From Methyloligellaceae bacterium (GTDB taxonomy: Bacteria > Pseudomonadota > Alphaproteobacteria > Rhizobiales > CBDHHC01): DNA of 64,000 nt. The stretch is from NCBI GenBank assembly GCA_965263345.1, contig CBDHHC010000021.1, forward strand, positions 4,182-68,181. Reading direction: 5' to 3'. Shown one piece after another: positions 1-51,544 of the stretch. The first letter of the stretch is position 1. Each line of letters opens with the position of its first letter. The position numbers were made by a program, and so were the translations under genes. A model generated the notes under the pieces. The model was not told the origin of the DNA and made no database searches. It was given only the letters and a program-made list of their open reading frames with translations.

Positions 1-98
1 CTTCTTTAATGCGACATTTGTCAAGTCTAAATTAATCAACATTGGTCAGGTTGTATACCTGACCACATTATAATGACCCAAACTTAAAGCTTCTATTC
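1..98 (+). repeat. Repeat family C, copy 1 (cut by window edge); identical to 18015..18112
   Basis: Base-for-base string identity of 1..98 with 18015..18112. It contains the hairpin GGTCAGG-ttgtata-CCTGACC at 44..64. Confidence 0.9.
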
Positions 99-131
99 CC
101 CGCCTGCTTTGTAAGCCTGACCGGCGGGGGG
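98..131 (-). repeat. GC-rich hairpin related to the start of repeat family B, in inverted orientation
   Basis: The reverse complement reads CCCCCGCCGGTCAGGCTT..., matching the first ~18 nt of the B elements at 21425, 42126 and 43082. The stem is CCCCGCC...GGCGGGG. Confidence 0.4.
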
Positions 132-182
132 TATTGTCGCAACAGGATCTGTTGTTTTGCGCAGAATAGGTGGTTGCCTAGC

Positions 183-482
183 TTATGCAGGGATAAATTT
201 TTCCACTTGAATTTCATTTTCACGTTTGCGCATTTGGAAGGCATCATAACGTGTTTGCATCCGCAAAAGCGTATCCATTTTCACTCCAAACGCTTTTTCA
301 ATCCGCAAAGCCATTTCTGGCGAAAGGGATGCTTTTTCATTCAGAAGATTGGACAAGGCAGGGCGGCCTACGCCTAATATTTCTGCTGCATGGGTTACCG
401 AAAGGTCATCAGGCAAGACAGACCGCTTTATAAATCCCCCTGGATGGGGTGGTTTCATACCTATTTTAACAGCCATTCTCAA
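183..482 (-). CDS. higA: HigA-type antitoxin (XRE-family HTH)
   Basis: 99 aa. The HTH segment LSVTHAAEILGVGRPALSNLLNEKASLSPEMALRIEKAFG is typical of HigA/VapI antidote proteins. It lies 12 nt downstream of the toxin gene, in the higB-higA order. Confidence 0.75.
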   Translation of the reverse strand: MRMAVKIGMKPPHPGGFIKRSVLPDDLSVTHAAEILGVGRPALSNLLNEKASLSPEMALRIEKAFGVKMDTLLRMQTRYDAFQMRKRENEIQVEKFIPA

Positions 483-494
483 TACTCCTGTTTC

Positions 495-785
495 CTAATG
501 GTAATCCTCATAATCAAGATCATAGAGTTCATGTTCTTGATCATCATACCGAAATGTAATGCGCCAGTTTGCAGTGACAGTAAAACTATATGTCTTTGCG
601 CGGTCTCCACTTAACAGATGTGGTTTGTATTTTTGAAGATCATAAACTTCTTCAATATCCTCAATATCATTGAGGAAGGCGATAATATCGCTGATTTTTA
701 GGACATAATCTTGGGTTAAGCCTTTGGGATTATTGTTTTCGACGAAATTCCGAAGGCCTTTATGTCGTATATTCCTGATCTTCAT
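495..785 (-). CDS. higB: HigB-type toxin (plasmid maintenance system killer / RelE superfamily)
   Basis: 96 aa. The N-terminus IRHKGLRNFVENNNPKGL and the segment ANWRITFRYDD match the HigB/killer-protein pattern. It is paired with higA. Confidence 0.7.
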   Translation of the reverse strand: MKIRNIRHKGLRNFVENNNPKGLTQDYVLKISDIIAFLNDIEDIEEVYDLQKYKPHLLSGDRAKTYSFTVTANWRITFRYDDQEHELYDLDYEDYH

Positions 786-878
786 AGAGTTTTATAACAT
801 ATTGTATTGTGTAGCGCAACAGGTTATAATTTCATGGTAATCACTTTTTCTAATTTGATTGTTCTTGTAATACATTTT

Positions 879-985
879 GGCTTTAACCCTTCATAAACCA
901 TAACGAAAAAAGAATAAATACCCAGGAAAAAAGTCCTTGACACCGTAACGGTCCTGTGCTATATATATGGCATAATCGGTAGAAA
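879..985 (+). promoter_or_regulatory. Repeat family D copy 1: ~105-nt module carrying a near-consensus sigma70 promoter
   Basis: TTGACA (937..942), a 17-nt spacer, then TATATA (960..965). The spacer contains the palindrome ACCGT-a-ACGGT. The module recurs at 44640..44745 and, more diverged, at 51545..51650. Confidence 0.45.
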
Positions 986-1145
986 ACTAGAAAAAAATAC
1001 TTATTTTCTTTAGTCTTATTGAAACTAAATTTTTTAAAATATATTGGCTTTTATTTTATCTATGTGCTCTTTCTTCTAAAAACCTTGAATATTATATGTA
1101 GTCATATTGTAAATGAATGTAACTACATTTTGGAAAGATATGACT

Positions 1146-1382
1146 ATGAGCAAAGACATCTCATTGCGTGAGGCAAAAGCACATTTGTCTAAATTGCTCG
1201 ACCGTGTGGAAAAGGGCGAAGAGATTATTATCACGCGTCATGGAAAGCCGTCTGCTAAGATGACATCTGTCAAAGCTCAGCGACGGACTGCCGGGGCTTT
1301 AAAAGGCCAGATTAAAATGTCTGATGATTTTGACCAAACAGATGAAGAGATTACTGAGCTATTTGAAGGGCATATTTCTTGA
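1146..1382 (+). CDS. Phd/YefM-family antitoxin
   Basis: The sequence MSKDISLREAKAHLSKLLDRVEKGEEIIITRHGKP is a classic Phd/YefM N-terminus. GGAAAG lies 8 nt upstream of this ATG (alternative starts at 1113 and 1140). The stop overlaps the vapC start. Confidence 0.75.
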   Translation: MSKDISLREAKAHLSKLLDRVEKGEEIIITRHGKPSAKMTSVKAQRRTAGALKGQIKMSDDFDQTDEEITELFEGHIS

Positions 1383-1762
1383 GCCTGTTAATTGATGCGC
1401 ATGTTTTGTTATGGTGGCTGAATGACGATAAACGTCTCGGAGATGCTGCCAGAACATTGATTTCCACACAAGAGACGGCTTCTATCAGTATTGCCAGTCT
1501 GTGGGACGTTATCATTAAACGCAGGCTTGGAAAACTTGAGGTTGATGTTGATGTCTTGTTTGATACGATCCCGAAGCAAGGTTTTTCAAGCTTGCCAATC
1601 GCGCATAGACATTTATTGACCTTAGATGGTTTGCCCATGCATCATCGCGATCCGTTTGACCGTATGATTATTGCACAAGCGATGACAGATAAGTGCACTG
1701 TCCTAACTGGTGATCAGGCTTTTTATGTTTATGATATTGCTCATATAGATGCCAGACAATGA
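1379..1762 (+). CDS. vapC: PIN-domain toxin VapC
   Basis: 127 aa. The N-terminal LLIDAHVLLWW and the C-terminal HRDPFDRMIIAQA are PIN acidic-residue motifs. The TTG start overlaps the antitoxin stop. Confidence 0.8.
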   Translation: MSLLIDAHVLLWWLNDDKRLGDAARTLISTQETASISIASLWDVIIKRRLGKLEVDVDVLFDTIPKQGFSSLPIAHRHLLTLDGLPMHHRDPFDRMIIAQAMTDKCTVLTGDQAFYVYDIAHIDARQ

Positions 1763-1774
1763 GATGAAACGTCC

Positions 1775-2674
1775 TCAACATTGGGGTAAACCCTGTCTTT
1801 TGGTTTTATGGATTATTTCTTCTTCTTTGCGAAGTTCGTCTTGTTGCCAGCTGTGAATAGCATAGGGTTTCTGGGTGTTGTTTTTAAGCTCTATGACAGC
1901 GCGGCGGGTAAAGAGTGTGCCGGAGGGTGTTTTTGCGATGGCGCTGATGGTGAAGGTTTTTCGGTTGGAGACGAGTTTATAAAGGCCGATTTCTTTTCGT
2001 TTGGTGAGTGCTTCTTTTAAGGTTTGTGGGCTGATATTTGCATCAAAGCCGCTGCGTTTAGAATAGATGGTGACGAGAGGTTTTAGCTGGGTAATGATTT
2101 TGTCAGATAACCCTAAGACCTGGTGAAGTTCTCCGATGGTCTGGAATTGGAAATTTTTAGGTCCATAGGGTTTGCCGGCTTCTTTATATTCTTTTTCTTC
2201 AGCGCCATTTAAGCGTTTTAGATTATCGGTATCGCGGAAATCTATGATGGCGTCGGTATATTTGTTGGCGATGTCCAAGGGAAGGCCAAGGCCTTGAAAC
2301 AGGGACAAAAGAAGCGCCTCATTGGCTGTATTGAGATCAATCTTGCCGGCTTCATCCTGTGCGGACAAACTTAAGATGATATTTTGTTTGCCAAGGCAAA
2401 GGACTGGTTGTCCATTGTGGGCAAAGCGTCTTTTTTCTGGCAATAATCTTGAGGTTTCCAGTAAATCAAGCAGGACAATATTGATACCGCCATCGGCCAT
2501 GGCTTGTGCTTTGGCGTGGTCCAGAACATTAGAGGTGAGTTTGGTATGGGTGCGCACTGTGACAACAAAGGAGAGCACAAGGAGCGCCATAAGGCCAAGG
2601 CCCCATATGACAATGATGAGCGCGAAGCCTCTTTGTGATTGACAAGCTGAGGCATCGCGACATTTTAAAAGCAT
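1775..2674 (-). CDS. gspK: Type II secretion minor pseudopilin GspK
   Basis: 299 aa. It has the N-terminal pseudopilin-like segment QRGFALIIVIWGLGLMALLVLSF and GspK-like size and pattern. Its start overlaps the gspD stop at 2674. Confidence 0.7.
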   Translation of the reverse strand: MLLKCRDASACQSQRGFALIIVIWGLGLMALLVLSFVVTVRTHTKLTSNVLDHAKAQAMADGGINIVLLDLLETSRLLPEKRRFAHNGQPVLCLGKQNIILSLSAQDEAGKIDLNTANEALLLSLFQGLGLPLDIANKYTDAIIDFRDTDNLKRLNGAEEKEYKEAGKPYGPKNFQFQTIGELHQVLGLSDKIITQLKPLVTIYSKRSGFDANISPQTLKEALTKRKEIGLYKLVSNRKTFTISAIAKTPSGTLFTRRAVIELKNNTQKPYAIHSWQQDELRKEEEIIHKTKRQGLPQC

Positions 2675-4848
2675 TAGCGGAAGGTCCGTTTGATATTTTC
2701 TTTAAAATCTGGTGTGCCGCCTGGTTTAGGGCGAACTGATAGGTTTAAACGACGGCGGAATTCATTGGTGACCTGATCAGCTTGATAGGGATCTCTGACA
2801 ACGCGCGGCGTGATTATGATAATTAATTCTGTGCGTTCAATTCTGTCGGATTTTTGTTTGAACAGATTACCTAAGATTGGAATGTCGCCAGCAAGTGGGA
2901 CCTGAGAACGGTTTTTGTTATTGTTGTCCTGGATTAAGCCGCCTAATGTCAGGCTTTCTCCGTCATTGACAACAACTGTGGTCTGAATTTTTCGCTGTTG
3001 AATGGTTGGAGAGTCAATGCCTGATGACGTGGTTTGTACAACATCGCTGACTTCCTGTTCAATTTCCAGAAGAACACGGCCGCTGTCATTGACCCGAGGT
3101 TTTACAGCTAAGATAACACCTGTATCCTTAAAGGAAACAGAATTGACAATTGGAGCGTTTTGATCGACGACGCTCACAGCGGACTGAGTGGCGATCGGAA
3201 CCTGATCACCAACTTGCAGGACAGCTTTTTTGTTATCGAGCACCATAACAGACGGCGAAGAGATGACTTTTACATTGGTGATGCTGTTTAGAGCATCAAG
3301 GGCAATATCAATTTTAGGTGTTGAAAAGAAATAAGAGAAGCCTGGAAAGGCCGAAGCGACTGCACCCGATGCTGCATCTGTGAATGTAAAGTTGCTTTTG
3401 CCTTTTTGGAAGAACCATTTGACACCGAATTGTAGCTCATCATTTAAGGAGACTTCGGCAATTGTCGCTTCAAGAAGGACCTGGTTTGGCAGGACATCAA
3501 TTCGCTCCAAGACACGCAGGATGCGTTTATAATAATGAGGTGTTGACATAATCAACAGCGAGTTATTGGCTTCATCTGTGACAATTCTTAAAGGAGCTTT
3601 TTTGCCATTTGTGTTTGTAGAAGAAGATGATGATGATCTAGAGGTTCTTTGTTGTGGTTCAGGGCTGTTATTTTCATTGTCCCCATTTTCGCGTGAGCCG
3701 TTAGATATTCTGGAGGCTGTATATTGTGGTGAAACATCGCCAGTTCCAGATGATGTTTCTGTGGTCTCTGCTTTGCCGAGGAATATTTTTTGTAAAATTT
3801 CTGTCAGTTCTGAGGCTGGGCGATTTTGTATTTTATAAACGTAGAGTTGTTCTGATGTGTTTCGGCCTGCCAGATCAAGACGTTTGATCCATTTTTCAGC
3901 TTTATATATATGATTTGGTTGGGAAGAGATGATCAGAACAGCATTTAAGCGCTTATTTGGAATAAAACGGAGCACGCCTTGTACCGGGCCTTTTTTGTCA
4001 TTGGCGTAAATTGTATCTAATTCTTGCACGAGATCTTCCGGGTCTGAATTTTTAGTAGGAACCAGTGAGATTGACATGCCTTTCATGAAGTCAACATCAA
4101 AGACATTGATTGCATCTTGAAGGGTATCGAGTTCGTTAGATGTGCCAGACAAAATGAGGAGGTTGCGGGTTTTATCGATACTTAGAATTGATCCTTCGGG
4201 TGCGATGGGTTTTAAAATGCGGGCCATCTCTGTTGCCGAAACATATTGGAGTGGTGTGATGACGGTCCCAACACCAACTCTTGCCCGCCGATCTCTATCT
4301 TTTCTGGTTGTAAGCCGTCTAACTTTACGATTGGCATTTGAAGCTGGAGCTATTTTGTAAAACTCTCCTTCTTCTTCGATGCCATATCCTTTGCTTTGTA
4401 AGATTGTTTCAAAGGTTTTCAAAAGAGCTTCTTTAGAGACTGCATTGGTGGTCTGGATGGTAATTTGTCCATTTACTTGAGGGTCTATGGTGTAATTGAT
4501 CTTTAAGGTATCAGCCAGGATCACTTTTGCAGCATGTTCAACACTTACACGGACCAAATTCAGTGTCACACCATCTTTGCCATTAAATGTTTTTTTTGCT
4601 GAGACTTTGGAAACCCCTTTAGTGAATTTTCCAGTCCCAGGAAAATGCCGAGTTTGTCTTTTATCAAGTTTATCGGAGGTCCCAGAAAAAAGCTTTTGTG
4701 AATTTGGAGTATATTTGTTACTTGTTTTTTTATATTTATTGTAACTTGGTCCTAATAATATTTCTTGTGTTGATTTACTAGCACAAGATGAAAGCAATAT
4801 CAAAACTATAGCATAAGTAGAACCTAATAAAAATACGCGATGCAACAC
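2674..4848 (-). CDS. gspD: Type II secretion secretin GspD, with lipoprotein-type signal peptide
   Basis: 724 aa. It has N-domains followed by a C-terminal secretin core (VPLAGDIPILGNLFKQKSD...ELIIIITPRVV). The N-terminus MLHRVFLLGSTYAIVLILLSSC carries a lipobox L-S-S-C. Confidence 0.9.
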   Translation of the reverse strand: MLHRVFLLGSTYAIVLILLSSCASKSTQEILLGPSYNKYKKTSNKYTPNSQKLFSGTSDKLDKRQTRHFPGTGKFTKGVSKVSAKKTFNGKDGVTLNLVRVSVEHAAKVILADTLKINYTIDPQVNGQITIQTTNAVSKEALLKTFETILQSKGYGIEEEGEFYKIAPASNANRKVRRLTTRKDRDRRARVGVGTVITPLQYVSATEMARILKPIAPEGSILSIDKTRNLLILSGTSNELDTLQDAINVFDVDFMKGMSISLVPTKNSDPEDLVQELDTIYANDKKGPVQGVLRFIPNKRLNAVLIISSQPNHIYKAEKWIKRLDLAGRNTSEQLYVYKIQNRPASELTEILQKIFLGKAETTETSSGTGDVSPQYTASRISNGSRENGDNENNSPEPQQRTSRSSSSSSTNTNGKKAPLRIVTDEANNSLLIMSTPHYYKRILRVLERIDVLPNQVLLEATIAEVSLNDELQFGVKWFFQKGKSNFTFTDAASGAVASAFPGFSYFFSTPKIDIALDALNSITNVKVISSPSVMVLDNKKAVLQVGDQVPIATQSAVSVVDQNAPIVNSVSFKDTGVILAVKPRVNDSGRVLLEIEQEVSDVVQTTSSGIDSPTIQQRKIQTTVVVNDGESLTLGGLIQDNNNKNRSQVPLAGDIPILGNLFKQKSDRIERTELIIIITPRVVRDPYQADQVTNEFRRRLNLSVRPKPGGTPDFKENIKRTFR

Positions 4849-4969
4849 AACTCCCCCTAATAATGGGTTTCCACAACATTAAAATAAAGCCCATTTCTAT
4901 GAGTTTATAAAACAAACATAAATTAAGCGGTATTATGACATTGCGACTTTTTTATTTTTTATAATTATT

Positions 4970-5512
4970 TCAATTGGTAATGTTGGTTTTATACAAAACC
5001 AATTCATTCTTTTTCCCATCCCCTTCTATTGTAACTTTATCGTTATGAATGGATATAATACGCCAGCCTTCAATGGTCATTTTATTTGAATACCAGAGGC
5101 CTTTGGGGTTTTGCGGAGAACTAATAAGCGCTTTTCGTGCACTTACATTTATGAGAATGCCTAGAAGCTTTAGTTGTGTATGGGAAATTATTGAAGGTTC
5201 CTGTTTTATTTGAGGAATGGGTTTTTCGATAGGTTTGATAATCTTCTTGATATAAGGCTTACGGTTTTTGTTAAAAATCGGGCGTTTATTAATTTCCGAA
5301 TTGGAATTAAGTGTGGTTTTTTTAAAGGCAAATTGTGGTTTGGCCAACACACTATTATTTTGCGGTATCTGTTTAAGTAAGTGTAAGCTGGGCGTGATAT
5401 CGAGTGTTATCGTCTGAAGATAATATATTGCATATCCGAGAGAACAGGAAAACAGTATTAGAAAAGTAAGGGAGACAGTTTTTATGAATGAAGCCTGAGA
5501 GGAGTTGTTCAT
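4970..5512 (-). CDS. GspC/GspN-like T2SS inner-membrane component (TM anchor plus HR/PilP-like domain, no PDZ)
   Basis: 180 aa with an N-terminal TM helix. The C-terminal LKLLGILINVSARKALISS...IEGWRIISIHNDKVTIEGDGKKNELVL resembles the secretin-interacting HR domain. It sits directly upstream of gspD and overlaps the gspM-like gene by 4 nt. Confidence 0.4.
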   Translation of the reverse strand: MNNSSQASFIKTVSLTFLILFSCSLGYAIYYLQTITLDITPSLHLLKQIPQNNSVLAKPQFAFKKTTLNSNSEINKRPIFNKNRKPYIKKIIKPIEKPIPQIKQEPSIISHTQLKLLGILINVSARKALISSPQNPKGLWYSNKMTIEGWRIISIHNDKVTIEGDGKKNELVLYKTNITN

Positions 5513-6072
5513 TTTTTATCTCCTTCCCATAAGCCTGCATAAATTTCAAGTTGTAGAGATATTATCTTATCGGATGTTATTCCAGCAGGTTGATAGACTT
5601 CATTTGCCCGAAAGCTTGCCCTTTCAATTATGAGAAAGGGAATATGATTTTCTATATCATGTAAGAGTTGATATAGTTTTTTTTGAGTCCCGCTTAAATC
5701 TATGCGGACACCAACCAACTGGCTGTCGGCATTTTTTTTTGATTGTATTTTGCTTGCTTGTTGAACAATAATCTGATGTTTGGTTGCGATATTTTTTACT
5801 GTAGACTGTAGGTTTGCGAAGACAATCGTTTCGCTTTGCCCTTCCATAAAATTTTTACGAGTTGAGGAAGTGGAAGATGTTTTCTTTGGAACTTTTTTAT
5901 TTTGTATTGTTAGGTATTTTGCGAGAAGGAAGCGTTTTTCTTCAATCTCATTTTGATTATCTAAATAATTTTGTCGTAAGGGAATTAGAATAAAATTCAT
6001 AATAGCCAGTAGTGGAAGTATTATGAGAGATATTGCAAGTAAGCGCCTGATATTTGGTGAAAGTTGATACAT
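5509..6072 (-). CDS. GspM-like T2SS assembly-platform protein
   Basis: 187 aa with a single N-terminal TM helix (LLAISLIILPLLAIMNFILIPL) and a periplasmic domain of about 150 aa. It is positioned between the L-like and C-like genes. The call rests on topology and context. Confidence 0.45.
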   Translation of the reverse strand: MYQLSPNIRRLLAISLIILPLLAIMNFILIPLRQNYLDNQNEIEEKRFLLAKYLTIQNKKVPKKTSSTSSTRKNFMEGQSETIVFANLQSTVKNIATKHQIIVQQASKIQSKKNADSQLVGVRIDLSGTQKKLYQLLHDIENHIPFLIIERASFRANEVYQPAGITSDKIISLQLEIYAGLWEGDKK

Positions 6073-6075
6073 TGT

Positions 6076-7179
6076 TCACCTTTTAAGCTCAGAAAATTGC
6101 GCAGGTTTTGTGAGTAATTTCAGACGATAGCGCTCTCGTTTTTGTGTTGGGTCCATTATAACAGGAGATATAAAACTGATCTTATGAAAGAGTTTTGAGT
6201 TATCTAAGGTTTTTAGTAATTTCTCGGCGTTTTTAGTATAACCTGTGATAATGATTTCGCCTTGTTTGACTTGCATGTCATTAACCCAGCTGTCGTCAGG
6301 TAATTTTTTTGCTATCTCTTCCCATAGTCTTACTATTGGAATAACTTTGTGTTTTTTTATATTTAAACTTTGAATTTTTCTCTCGAGGTTTTGAGAAGAT
6401 TTTATCCTAGCTTGTACTTTTTGTGCTTTCTGTTTGGCTATTTTGATTTTCTGATTAAGGGCAGAGATTGCTAAACTTTGTTTTTCAAAAAGTAAATATG
6501 TAAAAGTGGTAGATAATATAAGGATAAGTGATAAAAACATATATGCTGTTTTTTTATATAATGACTTATTATTTGAAATATCATTTTCAGCTATGAGATT
6601 AATATTATATGGGGATGAGGGCTCATCTCCAATTGCATCAACAAAAGAAATTTTGATGTTTTGTTTTTCAAAATTTTCTATCAGACTATTAACTTTATCT
6701 CTTTTTGCAATAATTTGTTGAATATGGAGCTTATTCTTATTTTCCTTTGAAATAATATAGTCAGAGTATATTTGATCATGTTTAAATGGGGTCGTATTTT
6801 CCAGATTGAGTGATAATATTTTTTCAATTTCAAATCTAGTTTCAAGAGGAAGTTCTTCTTTTCTTAAAAAATATTGTTTGGGACGTAAACGTAAACCAAA
6901 TATGTTCGCTTTATTTTTTTTCTTTAGTCTTTTTATAAATTCTTGAGAATGAAATTCAAAGTTCTCGAGTGTATGGAATTCTTGTATTTCGGGCTCTTCG
7001 TTTATCGAATTCTTCTTAGTTATAGTAAGTTTATTTTCGTGATAAGAAAAAGCTATATAAGGTATAGGTCTTTTATTTGTAGATTTTAACCAATCCGGGA
7101 TAATTGTGGAGAGTTCATAATACCACCACTGGAAAAAATGAGAGATATAAAATTGTAAGTGGTCGTTTTTTTGATTCAC
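6076..7179 (-). CDS. GspL-like T2SS assembly-platform protein
   Basis: 367 aa: about 210 aa cytoplasmic, one TM helix (AYMFLSLILILSTTFTYLLF), then about 135 aa periplasmic, which is the GspL topology. It is the first gene of the minus-strand operon, divergent from gspE. The sequence is very Lys/Asn/Ile-rich. Confidence 0.45.
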   Translation of the reverse strand: MNQKNDHLQFYISHFFQWWYYELSTIIPDWLKSTNKRPIPYIAFSYHENKLTITKKNSINEEPEIQEFHTLENFEFHSQEFIKRLKKKNKANIFGLRLRPKQYFLRKEELPLETRFEIEKILSLNLENTTPFKHDQIYSDYIISKENKNKLHIQQIIAKRDKVNSLIENFEKQNIKISFVDAIGDEPSSPYNINLIAENDISNNKSLYKKTAYMFLSLILILSTTFTYLLFEKQSLAISALNQKIKIAKQKAQKVQARIKSSQNLERKIQSLNIKKHKVIPIVRLWEEIAKKLPDDSWVNDMQVKQGEIIITGYTKNAEKLLKTLDNSKLFHKISFISPVIMDPTQKRERYRLKLLTKPAQFSELKR

Positions 7180-7347
7180 TTTACGTAACTCTACTAATTA
7201 GCTCATTAAATTAATGAGTTGATATAAAATAACACTAACATATGACCTATCCTATATGATATAACTTATGCAAAAGAATATGTTAGCTCATTAATATATA
7301 GCTTTAGAATAAGGCAACATAAATATTTATGTATTTTGTAATACTCA

Positions 7348-9066
7348 ATGAATTTTACAGATCCGAACAGTCAGAATTTTATAGAAAGCCTGAGTAATTT
7401 ATTGCTCAATAATAAAATTATTGATGAAAATGCATTAAATAGGGCAAAAACAGCACATTCTCAGACAAATGAGCGTTTCGATCTTGTGTTGACAAAGCTC
7501 GGTTTGGTTTCGGAGGAAGACCTCAATCAATTTTTAGCAAAACTACTCAAAATTCCATTTGTTGAAAAGAATGACTATCCAGACGACCTCATTATTCTTA
7601 ATGAGGTGAGTTTAGATTTTTTACGACTTCATAAAATATTATTGTTAGATCTAACACAAGATCAACTGAAAATTGCCACTCCAGACCCTTTTAATCACCA
7701 GGCCTTCGAAGCTCTTTCATATCAACTTGATAAAGATATAGAATGTTGTTTAACGAGAAATGCAGATTTTGAGGAGGCCTTTGAGACACTATTTGAACAT
7801 AATTTGTCAAGGCAAACTACAGATTATGAGGATTTAGATTTCTTAGACGTTAATAGTGAGGATGTTCAGAAACTAAAAGATCTTGCAAGTGAAGCACCGG
7901 TTATAAAATTAGTAAATGATCTGATTATCAAAGCTGTAGAGAATAATGCTTCAGATATTCATATTGAACCATTGGAAAATTATGTTCGTGTTAGGTATCG
8001 CATTGATGGTTTTCTCAATGAAGTTCAAAAAATTCCATTACATCTTAAATCGGCTGTTATTTCGCGCATTAAAATTCTAGGTAAGCTCAATATTGCAGAA
8101 AGACGTCTTCCTCTTGATGGTAGAATTAAGATGACAGTGAGGGGTATAGATGTTGATATTCGACTATCAACGACTCCAATCTATTTTGGGGAAAGTGTTG
8201 TATTAAGAATTCTGGATCAGAGTAAATTAACCCTTGATTTTCCAACTTTGGGGTTTGAGGGGAAAACATATGAAAATTATAAGACCTTAATTCAAAAGCC
8301 AAATGGCATCGTACTCGTGACAGGTCCTACAGGAAGTGGTAAAACAACGACGCTTTATGCCTCTTTAAATGAATTGAATGATGTTGCGCAGAAGGTATTT
8401 ACTGTAGAAGATCCTATCGAATATCAATTAGCTGGTATCAACCAACTTCAAGTTCATTCTGAAATTGGTTTAAATTTTGCGAAAGCCCTCAGGTCAATCT
8501 TAAGACAAGATCCTGATATTATCATGGTCGGGGAAATCAGAGACTTAGAAACTGCGCAAATTTCCATTCAGGCTTCATTAACCGGGCATTTGGTATTTTC
8601 TACACTCCATACCAATAGTGCAGCTGCAACAATAACTCGACTTATTGATATGGGTGTTGAAGACTATTTTATTGCCTCTACTGTTACTGGAATATTAGCA
8701 CAGAGGCTTGTTGGGAAATTATGTGAACATTGTGCAGAACCAATTGAGGTAACGCAACCTTTTATCGATAAGTTACACCCGACACAAGATACATTGTCAA
8801 TGGTCAAGCATTCTATAAAACTAAAAAAGGCTGTGGGATGTGCGTATTGTAACTATACAGGTTTCAAGGGACGGACAACGATTATGGAACTTCTTGTGAT
8901 TGATGATACAATACATGATGTTATCCTTTCTTCTGGTTCGCAGGCACAAATAGAAAAACAAGCGGTTCAAAATGGAATGACAACGATGTACCAAAATGGA
9001 TTAGTACGAGCTTTTCGTGGAGAAACAACGATCGAAGAAATTTTGCGTGTTGCACGATTAAAGTAA
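7348..9066 (+). CDS. gspE: Type II secretion ATPase GspE
   Basis: 572 aa with Walker A GPTGSGKTT, the VGEIRD motif, and a C-terminal tetracysteine (CEHC...CAYC). Confidence 0.9.
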   Translation: MNFTDPNSQNFIESLSNLLLNNKIIDENALNRAKTAHSQTNERFDLVLTKLGLVSEEDLNQFLAKLLKIPFVEKNDYPDDLIILNEVSLDFLRLHKILLLDLTQDQLKIATPDPFNHQAFEALSYQLDKDIECCLTRNADFEEAFETLFEHNLSRQTTDYEDLDFLDVNSEDVQKLKDLASEAPVIKLVNDLIIKAVENNASDIHIEPLENYVRVRYRIDGFLNEVQKIPLHLKSAVISRIKILGKLNIAERRLPLDGRIKMTVRGIDVDIRLSTTPIYFGESVVLRILDQSKLTLDFPTLGFEGKTYENYKTLIQKPNGIVLVTGPTGSGKTTTLYASLNELNDVAQKVFTVEDPIEYQLAGINQLQVHSEIGLNFAKALRSILRQDPDIIMVGEIRDLETAQISIQASLTGHLVFSTLHTNSAAATITRLIDMGVEDYFIASTVTGILAQRLVGKLCEHCAEPIEVTQPFIDKLHPTQDTLSMVKHSIKLKKAVGCAYCNYTGFKGRTTIMELLVIDDTIHDVILSSGSQAQIEKQAVQNGMTTMYQNGLVRAFRGETTIEEILRVARLK

Positions 9067-9070
9067 TGTT

Positions 9071-17693: not shown

Positions 17694-17987
17694 ATGAAAT
17701 ATATTTTTACAGAATGGCTTCATAAATTTGAGGATGAACCCAACAAACTTTATTATGAAATTAATAATGAAAGAATTCCAACTCGGGTGATTGAGATTTA
17801 TAAAAGTGGTAAAATTGGTTTTGCTTCAAATAAATTTCAATTTCAGGGCGCTTTCCTTTCTGTTGAACCCTTACCAGAATTAGAAGAGATAAATAGTGAT
17901 TCACAATTTAAAAGTGATTATATTGATCAAGAAGAATTTGAGAAACTTTGGAAAGAAGTAATAACCCAGCCAGACTGGTCGAAATAA
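17694..17987 (+). CDS. Hypothetical small acidic protein (possible orphan immunity-type protein)
   Basis: A 97-aa ORF with no signal peptide. Its 3' end runs into an A-repeat head (ACCCAGCCAGACTGG). The function was not recognised. Confidence 0.35.
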   Translation: MKYIFTEWLHKFEDEPNKLYYEINNERIPTRVIEIYKSGKIGFASNKFQFQGAFLSVEPLPELEEINSDSQFKSDYIDQEEFEKLWKEVITQPDWSK

Positions 17988-18014
17988 CCATAAGCGCTAA
18001 CCTCGCGGGTAAGA

Positions 18015-18112
18015 CTTCTTTAATGCGACATTTGTCAAGTCTAAATTAATCAACATTGGTCAGGTTGTATACCTGACCACATTATAATGACCCAAACTTA
18101 AAGCTTCTATTC
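18015..18112 (+). repeat. Repeat family C, copy 2
   Basis: Identical to 1..98. Confidence 0.9.
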
Positions 18113-18273
18113 TACGCAATATGAGAGCCGTCTATTGGCAGGCATCATGCTTCTTTCCGGGATCAGTGCTGGCGTAATTTTACGCTCCCAATAACACTCT
18201 CCCAAGTTACTGTCCATTCAAAGAGGGAGGCCGAACAAGCTTTGCAACGTGATTGGAAAGCCCTTTGACTTAA

Positions 18274-18358
18274 CCATGCCGGACCGATCTTGCAGATCGG
18301 TCTGATGGTTCTTGCCTCTTTAGGGCTATTGCATGATGGTCAGCCATTCCTGCGAAGG
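18274..18358 (+). repeat. Repeat family E copy 2
   Basis: Same hairpin and core as 16699..16799, with a shorter tail. Confidence 0.85.
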
Positions 18359-21424: not shown

Positions 21425-21550
21425 CCCCCGCCGGTCAGGCTTTGCAAGCCTGACTGAAAAGTCATGCCGCACCCTCGGTCAAACACAACCTCTCTATGAC
21501 CTGAAATTCAAAACTTCAATCTCACTTATCGGATGAGCCGAAGACCATTT
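21425..21550 (-). repeat. Repeat family B copy 1 (here still attached to the RAYT pseudogene)
   Basis: It has the hairpin GTCAGGCT-ttgca-AGCCTGAC. The ~125-nt unit is shared with 42126..42250 and 43082..43206. Confidence 0.85.
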
Positions 21551-32545: not shown

Positions 32546-32720
32546 CCCAGCTAGACTGAGCATGTTGCCCAGTCTGAATGTTCTTGCCTTTGTCTGCACA
32601 GCAGTTGGTGATAGGGTTTATGCATGAAAGGTAGGGTCGCATCAGTATGATACGATCCGCAATAAGGTTTAGCTCACAATAAAATGTACCCCCGCGGGTA
32701 AGACTTACAAAGTCTTACCC
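32546..32720 (+). repeat. Repeat family A copy 3 (long variant with terminal hairpin GGGTAAGACTT-acaa-AGTCTTACCC)
   Basis: The head is CCCCAGCTAGACTGAGCATGTTGCCCAGTCTGA, with the core GTTCTTGCC. The tail is shared with 16895..17050. Confidence 0.8.
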
Positions 32721-41760: not shown

Positions 41761-41878
41761 CAGCCGGACTGGGCATGTTGACCAGTCTGAGTGTTCTTGC
41801 CTTTGTTTGCGCATCAGTTGGTATAGGGTTTGTGCAAAAACGGTAGGGGCGCATCAGAATGATACGCCCCGCATCGGA
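41761..41878 (+). repeat. Repeat family A copy 4
   Basis: Differs from 16345..16470 at only about three positions by eye. Confidence 0.85.
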
Positions 41879-42125: not shown

Positions 42126-42250
42126 CCCCCGCCGGTCAGGCTTTGCAAGCCTGACTGAAAAGTCTTGCCACTCCCTCGGTCAAGAACAGCCTCTCTATGA
42201 TCTAAAATTCAAAACCTCAATCTCACTTATCGGATGAGCCGAAGACCATT
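42126..42250 (-). repeat. Repeat family B copy 2 (solo)
   Basis: Same hairpin as copy 1. Its minus-strand reading encodes WSSAHPISEIEVLNFRS*, the C-terminal end of the RAYT-type ORF. Confidence 0.85.
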
Positions 42251-43081: not shown

Positions 43082-43206
43082 CCCCGCCGGTCAGGCTTTG
43101 CAAGCCTGACTGAAAAGTCTTGCCACTCCCTCGGTCAAGAACAACCTCTCTATGATCTAAAATTCAAAACCTTAATCTCACTTATCGGATGAGCCGAAGA
43201 CCATTT
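43082..43206 (-). repeat. Repeat family B copy 3 (solo)
   Basis: Differs from copy 2 at 2-3 positions and has the same left and right boundaries. Confidence 0.85.
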
Positions 43207-43587: not shown

Positions 43588-43605
43588 CCCATTTGCTTTT
43601 AAGTT

Positions 43606-43700
43606 CAGCCGGACTGGACATGTTGACCAGTCTGAGTGTTCTTGCCCTTGTTTGCGCATCAGTTGACGATGAGGTTTATGCAAGAGCGGTAGGGGCGCAT
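43606..43700 (+). repeat. Repeat family A copy 5 (3'-truncated)
   Basis: The head is CAGCCGGACTGGACATGTTGACCAGTCTGAGTGTTCTTGCC. It lies between convergent genes. Confidence 0.8.
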
Positions 43701-43715
43701 CAAATCAAACATTCT

Positions 43716-44480
43716 TTAAAACTTTCCATTATTATTCTTCCAGTCTTCTTTAGGGGCGATCTTTTCCCTTGTGTCCCAATGCTCTACGATTTTGCCAGTG
43801 CAGAGTCGAAAGAGATCATAAAAAGCGCAATGAAGACCTGAATATGTTCCCTCACTGACACAAAGAACAAAATTGCCTTCAGCTAAAACCCGGTGGAGAT
43901 GATGATAATTGATGAGTTTGCCATTTTCGTCTTCAGCTTCTAAGGTTGCGCGAAGGGAAGAAGTCCCATCTTCACCTTTGGGATTGTGTTCTGTAAAGGA
44001 ATCTTTATTTACAAAACCCGATAGTCTCTCAAGGTCTTTCTTGATGAGTACGGTTTGCACAAAGTCTTTTACGATGCTCCTATGTATTTCCGTCAGTTCA
44101 AAATCAGAAGACTCTGTTGGGCCATCCACCATACTATGATGAGATTGATTTGGCCCTTGTCTTTCCTGAATATTATCCCAATGTTCAACGGCCTGGCCAT
44201 TTTCAAAACGAAAAACCTCAAACCCAATTTTACGACTGGCAAAATCATATTCCGTATGCGCAAAGACAAAATCTCCATCTTCAAAAGCACGAACAATATT
44301 TACACGAGGGTTTGTTTTCGAAAGGCGTTTGAAGAGTGAGGCGAGCCCCTCGCTCCCCTCGTGAGTCTGCGGGTTATGCTGAATATATTTTTCCTCATTA
44401 ACGACTGCAATTGGTCCAGGGTCACCCGTTTCAATGCTTCTCAGGAGGGCTCTAATCTGATCTTTCTTTGAAATGGTCAT
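43716..44480 (-). CDS. SnoaL-like / NTF2-fold protein with two tandem domains
   Basis: It has two copies of the ...EHWD motif (AVEHWDNIQ, IVEHWDTRE), typical of predicted SnoaL-like polyketide-cyclase-fold proteins. M at 44480 is preferred over 44507. Confidence 0.6.
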   Translation of the reverse strand: MTISKKDQIRALLRSIETGDPGPIAVVNEEKYIQHNPQTHEGSEGLASLFKRLSKTNPRVNIVRAFEDGDFVFAHTEYDFASRKIGFEVFRFENGQAVEHWDNIQERQGPNQSHHSMVDGPTESSDFELTEIHRSIVKDFVQTVLIKKDLERLSGFVNKDSFTEHNPKGEDGTSSLRATLEAEDENGKLINYHHLHRVLAEGNFVLCVSEGTYSGLHCAFYDLFRLCTGKIVEHWDTREKIAPKEDWKNNNGKF

Positions 44481-44639
44481 AATAGAGTTACCTTTTAATA
44501 TTCTCACCGTTTGTTCAACGTTTATTATACCAATGTCTTACAAATATAAAGATGAGCTAATTTAAGTTAACATGCTGGTCTTGTTGATACGTTCAATTTC
44601 AGCCACACAAATAAGAGCAATATGCAACGGCGTATATGT

Positions 44640-44745
44640 GGCTTAACTCTTCTTCAACCATAACAGAAAAAGAAAAAATACCCAGGAAAAAAGTCCTTGA
44701 CACCGTAACGGTACTGTGCTAGAGTTATGGCATAATCGAGAGAAT
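44640..44745 (+). promoter_or_regulatory. Repeat family D copy 2 (promoter-bearing module)
   Basis: TTGACA (44697..44702), a 17-nt spacer containing ACCGT-a-ACGGT, then TAGAGT (44720..44725). Both copies are followed by ATGGCATAATCG. Confidence 0.45.
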
Positions 44746-45367
44746 TTTAAGAAAACTCCATACTCCATCATACAATTCCTACAAATTTAAAACATTCTTA
44801 TAGTAAAAAATATATCATACTTATCCGCCTTAAAAGAGTGAAGCATTCTACAACTCTTATTATAGTTTATAGACGTGTTTTGAATCATTAAGTATTTAAC
44901 AAAACAAATACGCTTCAGCATGGAAAATTTCTTGCTTGTAATTTCAGAACAACTATTGAGTGCACTCTAGTTCTAATGCAAGTCACCTTAAATCATCACT
45001 CTTATTATGTTACAGTTATCAGGCACAAAAAAAGAATATTTGAAGACTGAGACATTTCTAATTTGCTAAACATGAGACATCTCTAAATAGGGGTGACATA
45101 CCAAATCGATTTCAAGACGCGGGTTTGATGGTGTAATTGTCCCTGGCGTTGATTTGGATACTGTAACAATAACCGATGAGGAAAGAAATCAACTTTGTCG
45201 TGGTAAAAACCAAAAGTGCAGATTCATCTCAAGAGCACGCAGATATTCTTTCAAGAATAAATTGAAAAACATAAGAATTTGCAAGGAATCTGATCGCGGA
45301 TAAAATGTAGTCTTAATGGGTAAGGCATGATCTGTCTTACCCAAATAAACGGACCATTCACTCAATT

Positions 45368-46780
45368 TCAACATTCAGGAAGATTAACGGCCAAGCCACC
45401 AGTTGAGGTTTCTTTATATCGCTCATTCATATCCACACCGGTTTGACGCATAGTCTCAATGCAATTATCGAGCGGCATAACATGTTGTCCATCACCACGC
45501 AGGGCCAATGAAGCGGCAGAAACAGCCTTGATTGCCCCAAGGCCGTTACGTTCAATACAAGGAACCTGCACCAATCCTTTGACAGGATCACATGTCATTC
45601 CAAGATGGTGTTCAAGCGCGATTTCAGCAGCATTTTCAATTTGCTCATTATTTCCGCCCAAAGCTGCGCACAATCCTGCGGCTGCCATGGCAGAAGCAGA
45701 ACCAACTTCACCTTGGCACCCCATTTCTGCGCCGGAAATAGAAGCATTATGTTTGATTAATCCACCAATCGCCGCTGCCGTCAGAAGAAATGTGCGAATA
45801 CCATCATGCTCCGCACCAATACAATGATCACGGTAGTAACGGATAACAGCTGGGACGACACCCGCCGCTCCATTGGTCGGAGAAGTCACAATGCGTCCAC
45901 CAGCTGCATTCTCTTCATTGACAGCCATTGCATAAACAGAAAGCCATTCATTAACAACATGAGGTTGGGTATTATTTCGCTGCTTTTCATGATCAAGCTG
46001 TTCTTTTATAGCCTTTGCGCGTCTTTTGACATGAAGTCCGCCAGGTAGTTCACCATCTTGAGACAAGCCACGATCAATGCAGTCATCCATAACAGACCAT
46101 ATATGATCAAGCTCTTGCTCAAGTTCTTTAGATGATAAAGAGCTCAGCTCATTAGCATATTTCATTTCTGCTATGGATTTCCCAGTGTCTTTGCCCATTT
46201 GAAGCATTTCAAGGGCTGAACGAAATGGAAAGGGAAATGTATTTTCTAAAGTATTATTTTTGCCTTCATATTGATCTGTCTGCTTTTCGTCTAAATCTTT
46301 TGCCGTCACGACAAATCCGCCACCGATCGAATAATATGTTTCTTCAAAACAGAGCGTTCCATCTAAATGAAAAACGCTGAATATCAAACCATTGGCATGA
46401 CCTGGCAACGCAGGACCATAGTCAAAGACAAGATCAGTATCAGGGTCAAATTTAAATTTTGGTAAACCTGCAGGTTGAAGCACTTTTTGCTCATACACTT
46501 CAGCGACAAGACCTTCTGCATCATCAGGGGACATTGTTGCAGGTTCAAGACCGAGTAACCCAAGAATGACAGCGCGGTCTGTTGAATGACCTTTGCCGGT
46601 AAAGGCAAGAGAACCATGTAAAGAACATTTAAGTCTAAGAAGTGCATCAGTATCAGTTTGAATTTGTAACTGCTTACGAAGAGTTGAGAGAAAATATGAG
46701 GCCGCCGTCATAGGCCCCATCGTATGTGAAGAGGAGGGGCCTATTCCTATCTTAAAAATATCAAATACACTTAAGAACAT
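45368..46780 (-). CDS. sdaA: L-serine ammonia-lyase (single-chain iron-sulfur type)
   Basis: 470 aa. The sequence [23 protein letters not shown] is the canonical N-terminus. Confidence 0.9.
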
Positions 46781-46837: not shown

Positions 46838-49705
46838 TTAGTCTGTACCTTCAGAGTAAGAATCCATTGGAGGACAAGAGCAAACTAAATTACGGTCACC
46901 ATAGGCATTATCAACACGATTAACAGGCGACCAGTATTTGTCAACCCGGAATGCCCCAGGTGGGTAACAGGCTTGCTCCCGGCTATAAGGTTTGTTCCAC
47001 TCATCAATAAGGTCTTCCACAGTATGTGGCGCATTCTTTAAAGGGTTATTTTCTGGGTCCATGCGTCCTTGCTCTATGTCCAGAGCTTCTTTGTGTATCG
47101 CAAGCATAGCCTCACAAAAACGATCCAGTTCAGCTTTAGTTTCAGATTCCGTAGGCTCAACCATTAACGTACCTGCAACAGGCCAGCTCATAGTAGGGGC
47201 ATGGAAACCGCAATCGATAAGACGTTTCGCAATATCATCAACAGTTACTTTTGCTGTACTATTTAAATGTCTTGTATCAATAATGCATTCATGGGCGATC
47301 CAACCACTATCCGCTTTATAGAGGATCTCGTAGCTTCCCTCTAGGCGCTTAGCAATATAATTAGCACTTAAGATTGCTATTTTGGTTGCTTGCTTTAAAC
47401 CTTCACCACCCATCAGCAAACAATAGGCCCAACTGATAGGAAGAATTGATGCAGATCCATAAGGCGCAGCAGATACTGGGCCAAGATCACCCCCTGTTTC
47501 AGGGTGATCAGGTAAATGACCAAGAAGATGAGATTTAACACCAATTGGTCCCATGCCTGGACCACCGCCACCATGTGGAATACAGAAGGTCTTGTGAAGA
47601 TTAAGATGACTCACATCTCCACCAATCTTTCCAGGTTGTACTAGACCAACCATGGCATTCATGTTTGCACCATCAATATAGACCTGTCCGCCATGTTGAT
47701 GTGTGATCGCACAAACATCTGTAACAGTTTCTTCAAATACACCGTGTGTAGAGGGGTAGGTGATCATGCATCCAGCAAGTTCATTGGAGTATTTTTCTGC
47801 TTTGTCACGAAAGTCCTCAACATCAATATCGCCATTGGCAGCCGATTTAATTGGAACCACTTTCCATCCCACCATTTGAGCCGTGGCAGGGTTGGTTCCG
47901 TGGGCCGAACTTGGGATCAAACAAACATTCCGATGTCCCTCACCTCGAGAGATGTGATAGTTACGAATGGTTATCAAACCCGCATATTCGCCCTGAGCCC
48001 CAGAATTGGGTTGCATTGAGATACCATCATAGCCGGTGATTTCACAAAGCATATCACCGAGCTCCTTGATCATCTCATGATAACCTTGAACCTGGTCTGC
48101 AGGAGCAAAGGGGTGCAATTGAGCAAATTCAGGCCATGTGATTGGAATCATCTCAGCTGTGGCATTCAACTTCATGGTACATGATCCAAGCGGAATCATT
48201 GCACGGTCGAGAGCAAGATCCCGATCGGCAAGTTTTCGCATATACCGTGTTATTTCAGTTTCGGCTCTATTCTGATTGAAAACAGGATGAGTGAGATAAG
48301 AGCTTGTGCGTAAAATGTTTTCTGGCAAGCGATACTCGCTTGGAAGATCCGCCCTTATGGTCTTAGCTGAGAGATCTCCACCAAAAGCACGCCAGACAGC
48401 CTCAATCGTTTCTAGGCGGGTGAGTTCATCAAGATTAATACCAATACGATCTTTTCCTATCGCACGCAGATTGACATGATTTGTGACTGCTTTGTCCAAA
48501 ATAGAACTTTGCATGTCACCGACATGAACTGTGATCATATCAAAAAATGTATCAGGTTCTATTTTAAATCCAAGTTTCTCAAGCCCAGCTGCAAGACAGA
48601 CGGCGCTTTTGTGAATATTTTGTGCAATCGCTTTAAGACCGTTTGGCCCATGGAAAACAGCATACATGGAGGCCATAACAGCTAAGAGGGCTTGGGCGGT
48701 ACAAACATTAGAGTTTGCTTTTTCTCTGCGAATATGTTGCTCGCGGGTTTGCAAGGCCAAGCGGTAAGCTTTTTTTCCTCGAGAGTCGATTGAAACACCA
48801 ATAATTCGTCCAGGAATGGCCCTCTTGAAAGCATCTCTGGTTGACATATAAGCAGCATGTGGCCCTCCGTATCCCATTGGAACGCCAAAGCGCTGGGTTG
48901 AGCCAATAGCAATATCGGCACCCATTTCTCCAGGAGACTTCAAAATAGTCAAAGCAAGAGGGTCAGCGGCAACAACAGCGATTGCCTGAGCTTCATGCAA
49001 TTTTGAAATAATATCTGTAAAGTCTCTCACATGGCCATGCGTACCAGGATATTGGAAGATCGCGCCAAATACATTTTCAGCAACCAGATGCACTGGATCA
49101 CCAATAATGATATTAATACCGAGTGGTTCTGCACGTGTTTTTATAACCGCAATATTTTGTTGATGACAATTTTCATCAACAAAGAAAGAGGTAGCTTTGG
49201 ATTTTGCAACACGCTTTGCCATGGTCATGGCTTCAGCTGCTGCTGTTGCTTCATCTAAAAGGGAGGCATTGGCAATTTCTAGACCTGTAAGGTCAGAGAC
49301 CATGGTTTGAAAATTTAAGAGCGCCTCCATACGCCCCTGACTGATTTCAGGTTGGTAAGGTGTATAAGCTGTATACCAGGCTGGATTCTCAAGAATATTT
49401 CTGCGAATGACAGGCGGTGTGATTGTTCCATGATACCCTTGTCCAATAAGAGACGTTAAGACTTTATTTTTTTTAGAAACCTTCCGCATATAATCCAAGG
49501 CATCGCCTTCGGAAAGGGCCTCACCAATTTTCAAAGGCTCGTGACTTCTCAGACTCGAAGGAATTGTTTCATCAATAAGGTTATCAAGACTTTGCAGACC
49601 AAGGACTGAAAGCATTTGCTCTATATCTTCTGGCGAAGGGCCAATATGCCGTCGGTTGGCAAAGTCATAAGGTTGATAATGTGTTGGTTCGAAGCTCATG
49701 TACAA
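46838..49705 (-). CDS. gcvP: Glycine dehydrogenase (decarboxylating), single-chain P protein
   Basis: 955 aa, conserved over the full length. Confidence 0.95.
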
Positions 49706-49757: not shown

Positions 49758-50867
49758 TCATCTTTTGTAATTTTGAGGCACAAACGGAAGGGTTACAATT
49801 TTTGCCGGCACTGATTTACCCCGCAAAGTTAGATTGATTTCTGTGTCTGGCTCCGCATGTTGCGCACTGACATACCCCATTGAAATTGGGTATTGTTTTG
49901 TTGGGCTAAAACCACCGCTTGTAACTTGACCAATAGGTTGACCATCAGTCGTAGTAATCTCTACCCCTTGTCGTGCAGGGGCTTTGCCACCTGGAAGTAT
50001 GCCAACTAACTTACGAGATGGCCCCTCAGATAATTCTTTTAAGATACGGTCTGCACCAGGAAAGCCGCCTGACTGGCGACGACGTTTCTGCATAAGCCAT
50101 TGGATTTGAGCTTCAACTGGCGAGGTTTGTGTATCGATATCATTTCCATAAAGGCATAGACCAGCTTCTAATCTTAAGCTATCACGTGCACCAAGTCCAG
50201 CAGGGGCACAATCATCATGTTCTAAGAGGGCCTTACTAATTTTAATGGCATGACTTTGTGGGATAGATATTTCATAACCATCTTCCCCGGTATAACCAAG
50301 TCTGGAAATTCGACAATGTATGCCTAAAATTTCAGCTTCTGTGGTTTCCATAAATTTCAACTGAGCAGCAGTTGGTGCAAAGGCACTCAAAATAGTTTCC
50401 GCAGCAGGGCCTTGTATAGCAATCAATGCATGCTCGTTTAGCTCTATAACATCAACGAAACCAAGATGCTGTCGCATATGAGCAATATCCTGATCACGCA
50501 TAGATGCATTCACAACAACAAAAAGATAGTCTCCGGCATTTGAAACAATCAAATCATCAAGAATGCCACCAGCATCATTTGTGAAAACCGTATAACGTGC
50601 CTTACCAGATTTCAGCCCAGTAATGCTACTGGGAACCAGATTTTCCAGTTCATGGGCAGCAGTCTCTCCTTTTAAGAGGACTTGTCCCATATGCGAAACA
50701 TCAAAAAGAGCTGCTTTATTCCGGCACTGATGATGTTCGGACATAATCCCTGAGGGATATTGCACAGGCATTTGCCAACCCGCAAAATCCACCATCTTGG
50801 CCCCCAACTCAACATGCAGGTCATAGAGCGGTGTTTTTTTGATAGGCGAATTACTGTCATGCGCCAT
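49758..50867 (-). CDS. gcvT: Glycine cleavage system aminomethyltransferase T
   Basis: 369 aa. The sequence KKTPLYDLHVELGAKMVDFAGWQMPVQY is typical. Confidence 0.95.
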   Translation of the reverse strand: MAHDSNSPIKKTPLYDLHVELGAKMVDFAGWQMPVQYPSGIMSEHHQCRNKAALFDVSHMGQVLLKGETAAHELENLVPSSITGLKSGKARYTVFTNDAGGILDDLIVSNAGDYLFVVVNASMRDQDIAHMRQHLGFVDVIELNEHALIAIQGPAAETILSAFAPTAAQLKFMETTEAEILGIHCRISRLGYTGEDGYEISIPQSHAIKISKALLEHDDCAPAGLGARDSLRLEAGLCLYGNDIDTQTSPVEAQIQWLMQKRRRQSGGFPGADRILKELSEGPSRKLVGILPGGKAPARQGVEITTTDGQPIGQVTSGGFSPTKQYPISMGYVSAQHAEPDTEINLTLRGKSVPAKIVTLPFVPQNYKR

Positions 50868-51213: not shown

Positions 51214-51390
51214 TCTGTCCTGGGACCTGAGAGATTTCATCATTGATAAAGATTAACCAACGACTTATCACCTTCGGTGAGCTGCTCTAAGCGGCTACTT
51301 TCCAGAGGGCCATCAGCTTGCGATCCTTTTGCCTGAGAGTTTCCGAGGCGTTTGCTCCTTCGGCGCCGACTTGAAATCAGTCTCTCCCGC
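51214..51390 (-). promoter_or_regulatory. Tandem glycine riboswitch (two aptamers)
   Basis: The minus strand reads GGGAGAGACTG...GGCGCCGAAGGAGCAAACGCC...CTCTCAGGCAAAAGGATCGC for aptamer 1. It then reads CTCTGGAAAGTAGCC...GCTCACCGAAGGTGATAAG...CTCTCAGGTCCCAGGACAGA for aptamer 2. It lies upstream of gcvT. Confidence 0.85.
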
Positions 51391-51544
51391 AAGATTCGTT
51401 TGGCATGTTAAAGTTTAATGGTAGTCTGAAAATATTTTTAAAGTCAATATATTTTATATTTCACAATATAAGCTTCTTTAATCATATCACTGACCATACG
51501 GACTTAAGCTCAGACTCTTCATCCAAGAAAGAGGGAACATGCGG

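Follow-up and report, generated by a model that had tools for sequence, protein, structure and literature searches.

A dispersed module in intergenic DNA

A module of about 105 nt recurs in the window, the 64-kb stretch of DNA analysed here, and its promoter-like core raises the question of whether it is a promoter copied from site to site, the 5' end of a small RNA gene, a binding site for a regulator or a repeat without function. The sequence-only reading of this DNA had described three plus-strand copies at 879-985 (copy 1), 44640-44745 (copy 2) and 51545-51650 (copy 3), and both direct reading and alignment confirmed them. Copies 1 and 2, which had been called closely similar, share 87.9% identity over 107 nt (878-984 versus 44639-44744), and copy 3 is indeed a diverged third copy, yet alignable end to end. 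Thirty bases are invariant across all three copies, with a chance expectation of 0.00 in 100 shuffles of the window. The pattern formed by these bases, TCCTTGA-N-A-NN-GT-N-A-N-G-N-T-N-CT-N-TGCTA-NNNN-TA-NN-GCATAATC, was derived from the copies themselves and matches the 64-kb window exactly at 934-977, 44694-44737 and 51599-51642, always on the plus strand. An nhmmer profile of the whole 110-nt module recovered the same three sites (E = 4e-31, 6.5e-31 and 2.2e-24) with a next-best match in the window of E > 1; since the profile was built from the three copies, its scores are no independent confirmation.

The similarity is unevenly distributed along the module. Between copies 1 and 2 the identity amounts to 84% in the upstream 55 nt, 91% in the 44-nt core (from the -35 box to about +6) and 54% in the next 13 nt, and the corresponding values are 54%, 75% and 31% between copies 1 and 3 and 56%, 68% and 38% between copies 2 and 3. 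Past about +6, the identity of copy 3 to the other two is at the random level. These segment identities indicated that the module ends sharply, with a right end just 6-13 nt beyond the predicted transcription start. The flanks of the three copies are mutually unrelated in blastn and tblastx comparisons. At least two copying events have brought the module into unrelated intergenic sites, copy 3 being old and copies 1 and 2 being about 12% diverged. Within copy 3 the core is better kept than the upstream half (75% and 68% versus 54% and 56% identity to copies 1 and 2, respectively), a contrast that is weakly significant and involves few bases.

Predicted core promoter and its match to the alphaproteobacterial consensus

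A -35 box, a spacer of exactly 17 nt and a -10 box were found in all three copies, as had been claimed. Copy 1 carries TTGACA at 937-942 and TATATA at 960-965 with a TG at 957-958, copy 2 carries TTGACA at 44697-44702 and TAGAGT at 44720-44725 with a TG at 44717-44718, and copy 3 carries TTGAAA at 51602-51607 and TATGTA at 51625-51630 with a TG at 51622-51623. The TG, two bases before the -10 box (-15/-14), makes the -10 element of an extended type in every copy. The layout common to all copies is TCC-TTGA(C/A)A, the 17-nt spacer, TGC-TA(TATA/GAGT/TGTA), 4 nt and GCATAATC, and the alignment showed that TCCTTGA, the 17-nt spacing, TGCTA and GCATAATC are fixed in 3/3 copies. The conservation extends to positions that are not polymerase contacts (TCC before the -35 box and GCATAATC at the start), for which a plain promoter offers no explanation.

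In Sinorhizobium meliloti, the consensus used for sigma-70 promoters is CTTGAC-N17-CTATAT (PMC2873474). The predicted core promoter of copy 1 (936-964, plus strand) agrees with it at all 12 positions and is the sole 12/12 match in the 64 kb, where 0.01 matches are expected and one of 100 shuffles contained a match. Copies 2 and 3 each show two mismatches to this consensus. Their -35 elements read CTTGAC, as in copy 1, and CTTGAA, respectively, and the -10 elements compared with CTATAT are CTATAT in copy 1 (6/6), CTAGAG in copy 2 (4/6) and CTATGT in copy 3 (5/6). With the E. coli consensus, 34 sites with 10/12 matches were counted in the AT-rich window against about 39 in shuffles, which is the chance frequency, and the usual T at -7 is missing from the -10 hexamers of copies 1 and 3. 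Considering that E. coli-type matches occur at the chance level, the case for a promoter is not built on the promoter-likeness of any single copy; it is built on the perfect alphaproteobacterial match, the parallel with a tRNA-Glu promoter and the conservation pattern in the old copy.

The likely promoter of tRNA-Glu, the only stable-RNA gene in the window, lies at 57427-57399 on the minus strand, reads CTTGCC-N17-TTATAT and ends about 20 nt before the gene. Long A/T tracts precede it, resembling the A/T-rich upstream half of the module. This promoter of the same design implies that the promoter type is apparently used by the organism. It may also serve as a reference for promoter architecture in this organism. 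In copy 1, the A-rich upstream half (905-931, plus strand) contains two A6 tracts 21 nt apart, which could act as an UP-like or bent-DNA element.

Predicted start-site block and palindrome

The best-conserved part of the module is GCATAATC, which is identical at 8/8 positions in all copies and covers about -2 to +6, the start positions being derived from the position of the -10 box. It occupies 970-977 (plus strand) around the predicted start at about A972 in copy 1, 44730-44737 in copy 2 and 51635-51642 in copy 3. A common start motif had been proposed earlier, and such a motif is present; its wording needs correction, as it reads GGCATAATCG in copies 1 and 2 and GTGCATAATCA in copy 3, and the claimed TGCATAATC fits copy 3 only. 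The triplets of TGC-N10-GCA, which flank the -10 box, are likewise invariant in 3/3 copies. Within the block lies CATAAT, a near-consensus -10 hexamer. Copies 1 and 2 have TGG in front of it, and the combination would constitute a second extended -10 promoter in these two copies, whose start would be displaced downstream by about 12 nt. Sigma-dependent pausing can be caused by a -10-like element in the DNA that is transcribed first, and CATAAT in GCATAATC could alternatively have this role.

A more far-reaching proposal takes the module for a self-propagating unit of promoter and start-site tag that seeds non-coding and antisense transcripts, with CATAAT as a control point or 5' tag of a co-regulated set; we regard it as distinctly improbable. 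If it were true, the seeded transcripts would include, for example, an orphan RNA of 600 nt and an RNA running antisense through the dnaE 3' end, and GCATAATC would be a sigma-dependent promoter-proximal pause site, the binding site of a single regulator or a common 5' RNA tag.

The palindrome ACCGTAACGGT (ACCGT-A-ACGGT) is present in copies 1 and 2 as described, at 942-952 and 44702-44712, and is absent from the rest of the window. In copy 1 this unstranded element takes in the final base of the -35 box and part of the spacer. The corresponding site in copy 3 is ATTGTCAGGAT, which is no palindrome. To call it an obvious repressor-type site, as the sequence-only reading did, was an overstatement, since the palindrome is lost in copy 3 and common by chance. 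Palindromes of the 5+5 type with a loop of 0-3 nt were found in 28% of the shuffled modules and 37% of the window's 107-nt tiles, compared with about 2% of random 17-mers. As copies 1 and 2 arose by recent duplication, their palindromes count as one observation and not as independent evidence; a run of 11 unchanged bases at 88% identity has a probability of about 0.25 and is unremarkable. An operator function, for example for a toxin-antitoxin (TA) antitoxin, is possible, and this assignment is weak because palindromes of this size are common by chance.

Genomic surroundings of the three copies

Pfam analysis placed copy 1 between two TA pairs. To its left, HigB and an HTH antitoxin (higBA) are encoded at 183-785 on the minus strand, with the higB start at 785, and to its right Phd and a PIN-domain toxin are encoded at 1143-1762 on the plus strand. 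The copy points at the phd/vapC pair as had been stated, phd lying 170 nt downstream, and it is the only one of the three copies with a co-oriented gene downstream. An inverted repeat read by eye, ATGTAGT-N19-ACTACAT (1097-1129), lies directly upstream of phd and is probably the phd/vapC operon's own operator.

Copy 2 is flanked on the left by a gene for a SnoaL-like protein (43716-44507, minus strand; start at 44480 or 44507) and on the right by the serine dehydratase gene sdaA (45368-46780, minus strand), both assigned by Pfam. The gene-free region into which it was said to point for about 850 nt does exist; the whole of it measures about 860 nt (44508-45367), of which only about 620 nt lie downstream of the module. 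This orphan region (44746-45367, read on the plus strand) ends at the sdaA stop codon and a terminator-like hairpin at 45318-45345. It yielded no convincing ORF, homologue, Rfam match or significant fold, and a 68-aa open frame at 45100-45303 (plus strand) has no homologue. The GC content in this region rises up to 48% at 45101-45150. The region may be a decayed gene.

Copy 3 points antisense into the 3' end of dnaE as reported, with a predicted start about 38 nt from the dnaE stop codon (51675-51677, minus strand). Its left neighbour is a minus-strand leader containing a tandem glycine riboswitch (51214-51399) ahead of gcvT-gcvP, whose two aptamers scored 67 and 37.5 bits in Rfam. No gcvH is visible between gcvT (49758-50867) and gcvP (46838-49705). 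The genes next to the three copies belong to different Pfam families and are not paralogues.

Comparison with known mobile and regulatory elements

The putative mobile promoters (PMPs) of Matus-Garcia, Nijveen and van Passel (2012), as summarised in PMC3575422, are non-coding sequences that lie beside non-homologous genes of one genome and reach 80% identity or more across 50 nt or more; they have no recognisable transposon features and spread in an unknown mode. By this definition, copies 1 and 2 lie above the similarity threshold (87.9% over 107 nt) and copy 3 lies below it, and the neighbours of the module are non-paralogous. PMPs were sought at -150 to -50 relative to an annotated start codon. 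Copy 1 is further away, since it occupies -264 to -158 with respect to the phd start codon (ATG at 1143), and no co-oriented ORF follows copies 2 and 3. The module also differs from PMPs in possessing an old third copy from which the conserved positions can be read.

Correia elements of Neisseria and ERIC-type repeats, which are short, dispersed and intergenic, provide any adjacent DNA with sigma-70 promoters that read outward; both have terminal inverted repeats, and Correia elements additionally have TA target duplications and hundreds of copies. The module resembles them as a short dispersed intergenic repeat with a predicted outward sigma-70-type promoter, but it is without terminal inverted repeats or target duplications, and three copies are visible. 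No terminal inverted repeats are shared among the copies: those of copies 2 and 3 stand in different registers (alignment columns 1-12/84-95 versus 4-24/87-107) and copy 1 has none. Short direct repeats indicative of target-site duplication do not flank copies 2 and 3. One imperfect direct pair spans the left junction of copy 1 (865-883/1032-1050, 79% identical); its partner lies about 47 nt past the right junction, and there is no counterpart at the other copies. A MITE-type element was rejected for lack of consistent terminal inverted repeats and target duplications, and a REP/REPIN hairpin repeat was rejected as the module folds no better than shuffles on either strand (z of -0.5 and +0.9 in copy 1, and of -0.04 when copy 2 was folded as its minus strand).

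Sinorhizobium sRNA promoters have the same hexamers and spacing as the module, and copy 1 matches them perfectly; they are independent instances with the hexamers alone in common, whereas the module is homologous over about 105 nt, non-contact positions included. Autoregulated promoters of type II TA systems likewise have a palindrome over the -35 box and spacer, and copy 1 faces phd/vapC, but the palindrome is lost in copy 3, two copies are without TA genes and phd is unusually distant. Copies 1 and 2, as direct repeats 43.7 kb apart, were also considered as the attL/attR ends of an island and rejected, because the largely unannotated interval contains ordinary-looking ORFs, beginning with a type II secretion cluster, because the identity is 88% and because a third copy exists. 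A dif/Xer site, an IHF site and a DnaA box were inspected by eye and gave no fit.

Small-RNA and coding interpretations

Next to a mobile promoter, the sequence-only reading had offered a multicopy small RNA of which the module would be the 5' end. A strong consensus promoter that is not followed by an ORF is indeed typical of sRNA genes. The S. meliloti consensus given above stands before 101 sRNA candidates in that species (PMC2873474), and GCAUAAUC would be the common 5' end of such a family. The analysis did not bear this out, as only about 6-13 transcribed bases are shared and no fold, terminator or Rfam match supports an RNA. Similarity ceases 6-13 nt past the predicted start, and neither blastn nor tblastx relates the sequences further downstream. 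When folded, the first 90 nt of the predicted transcripts gave z values of +0.2 to +0.9 versus shuffles, and two longer stretches, the whole leader of copy 1 (175 nt) and the 620 nt that follow copy 2, gave -0.1 and -1.5, so that no common or significant fold emerges from the whole range of +0.9 to -1.5. No terminator-like sites were found downstream of the copies, and Rfam returned no match to the copies even at E <= 10. A module that combines the promoter and 5' end of a multicopy small RNA family is consequently very improbable. A minus-strand ORF of 42 aa across copy 2, whose frame is open through copy 1 as well, was rejected as a coding sequence, since nearly all differences between copies 1 and 2 would change amino acids and copy 3 contains in-frame stops.

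A proposed duplicated promoter cassette and its alternatives

The proposal of a mobile or duplicated promoter fits the perfect consensus of copy 1, the retained core of copy 3 and the unrelated flanks. The module is best explained as a duplicated strong sigma-70/RpoD promoter cassette of about 105 bp whose core is probably functional, a reading drawn from sequence comparison to which we give about an even chance. The cassette would consist of the A-tract-rich upstream half, the consensus -35 box, the 17-nt spacer, the extended -10 element (TGn-TAnnnn) and GCATAATC. RNA polymerase would start at about 972, 44732 and 51637 and read rightwards. Copy 1 would thereby provide a second, distal promoter for phd/vapC with a 170-nt leader, an orphan transcript no longer than about 600 nt would arise from copy 2, and copy 3 would be the source of an RNA complementary to the dnaE 3' end. 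Selection would have maintained the start-site block of the old copy together with its polymerase contacts, whereas drift would have affected the upstream half and the spacer, including the site of the palindrome. Because transposon features are lacking, illegitimate or recombinational copying is assumed for the spread of the cassette. A point against the cassette is that a co-oriented ORF follows just one of the three copies, with phd 170 nt away and adjoined by what looks like a control region of its own (1097-1129). The cassette is most likely a member of a known phenomenon, promoter reuse or "putative mobile promoters", and no new class of element.

Among the alternatives, a neutral or selfish dispersed intergenic repeat, promoter-like by resemblance, is the most probable, although still unlikely. 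Several other dispersed repeat families populate the window, two of the three copies face no gene, and E. coli-type promoter matches are at the chance level in this AT-rich DNA, all of which would suit such a repeat. It does not account readily for the perfect 12/12 match, improbable by chance (0.01 expected), nor for the core of copy 3, which is better kept than the rest in a manner unlike neutral decay, with weak significance; inverted repeats of the REP, REPIN or MITE type, hairpins and target duplications are also missing. A regulator-binding cassette serving the minus-strand neighbour, or a pair of back-to-back divergent promoters, is suggested by the left end of the module, which faces the start of a minus-strand unit in 3/3 cases (higB at 785, the SnoaL-like gene at 44480/44507 and the riboswitch leader at 51399). 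The CtrA box has the consensus TTAA-N7-TTAAC, and a conserved TTAA-N7-TnAAC at the left end, with 8/9 of its positions, is present in all copies; the invariant TGC-N10-GCA around the -10 box could be read in the same way. Against this, the orientation would arise by chance with a probability of 1/8, and the window contains no excess of CtrA-like boxes that have one mismatch (25 found versus 34 expected). The module also lies at differing distances from the minus-strand starts (94, 133-160 and about 146 nt), and copy 3 is least conserved in the very part nearest the minus-strand genes, which leaves this arrangement with a slim chance.

Operators of type II TA systems usually overlap the -35 box and spacer, as the palindrome does here. 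The module might accordingly be a remnant of TA cassette promoters, with the palindrome as a Phd/VapC or HigA operator and the TA genes lost at copies 2 and 3. The location of copy 1 between two type II TA pairs, higBA and phd/PIN, agrees with such an origin, as do the roughly 620 nt of orphan, possibly decayed DNA after copy 2. Nevertheless, tblastx detected no trace of TA genes downstream of copies 2 and 3 and the orphan frame is without a homologue; phd lies 170 nt away with the other inverted repeat (1097-1129) directly upstream, and the palindrome is missing in copy 3 and frequent by chance. We consider this origin quite unlikely.

If the copies of the promoter cassette are active, they would illustrate promoter reuse in a poorly known, repeat-rich alphaproteobacterium, with one strong promoter placed before a TA operon, before orphan DNA and antisense to the gene of the replicative polymerase. 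The old third copy amounts to a small natural experiment on which positions of the cassette are under selection. An active cassette would also be useful for genetic tools in this lineage, as a strong promoter of compact size.

Occurrence in other DNA

Public collections were scanned with a pattern of 21 specified invariant bases, which had 0 matches in public genome contigs and 0 in viral contigs. Three metagenome contigs matched, at ordinary promoters of unrelated GC-rich or other organisms, for example before rplU; these were rejected as relatives of the module because they have nothing in common beyond the forced bases. BLAST of the module against plasmids and phages gave nothing meaningful. 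The best relatives of DnaE are about 60% identical, all from alphaproteobacteria, and the best non-self relative of GcvT is 74% identical; the contig of a near GcvT relative (73% identical) has 65% GC and is unrelated. The module is absent from 1.6 Mb of relatives' DNA.

A contig of the same species, L085 (ENA assembly ERZ25074695), was found via VapC and is 98.2% identical to the window over 1-11761. The higB-phd intergenic region, copy 1 included, is identical in the two. Their 207 differences are strongly clumped, and mismatch-free kilobase tracts also occur elsewhere in the alignment, which makes the identity of copy 1 in L085 uninformative on selection. Within 4501-5500 of the window, 95 of the 207 differences are concentrated at the start of a GspD-like gene and an adjacent 180-aa ORF, and this clustering suggests a recombination tract or a fast-evolving segment. 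Beyond the window, L085 extends by 2.2 kb that encode an ankyrin-repeat protein. This gene, the TA pairs, the many repeats and a GC content of about 40% suggest that the organism is a host-associated alphaproteobacterium.

Other repeats in the window

Hairpin-bearing REP-like intergenic repeats of about 60-150 nt, such as CCGGACTGGTCATGTTGACCAGTCTG, were noticed at 16345-18337, 32546-32692, 41761-41877 and 43604-43750, in at least six copies that are 63-98% identical and of which one is inverted at 17616-17666. A second family of about 125 nt (21426-21549, 42127-42250 and 43082-43205; 93-98% identical) starts with the hairpin CCGGTCAGGCTTTGCAAGCCTGACTGG and is also present at 1896-2093 of L085, with a partial reverse copy at 113-133 of the window. 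Finally, a 98-nt direct repeat connects 1-98 with 18015-18112 at 100% identity; it contains the hairpin GGTCAGGTTGTATACCTGACC and promoter-like hexamers, and one of its copies is situated just downstream of higA.
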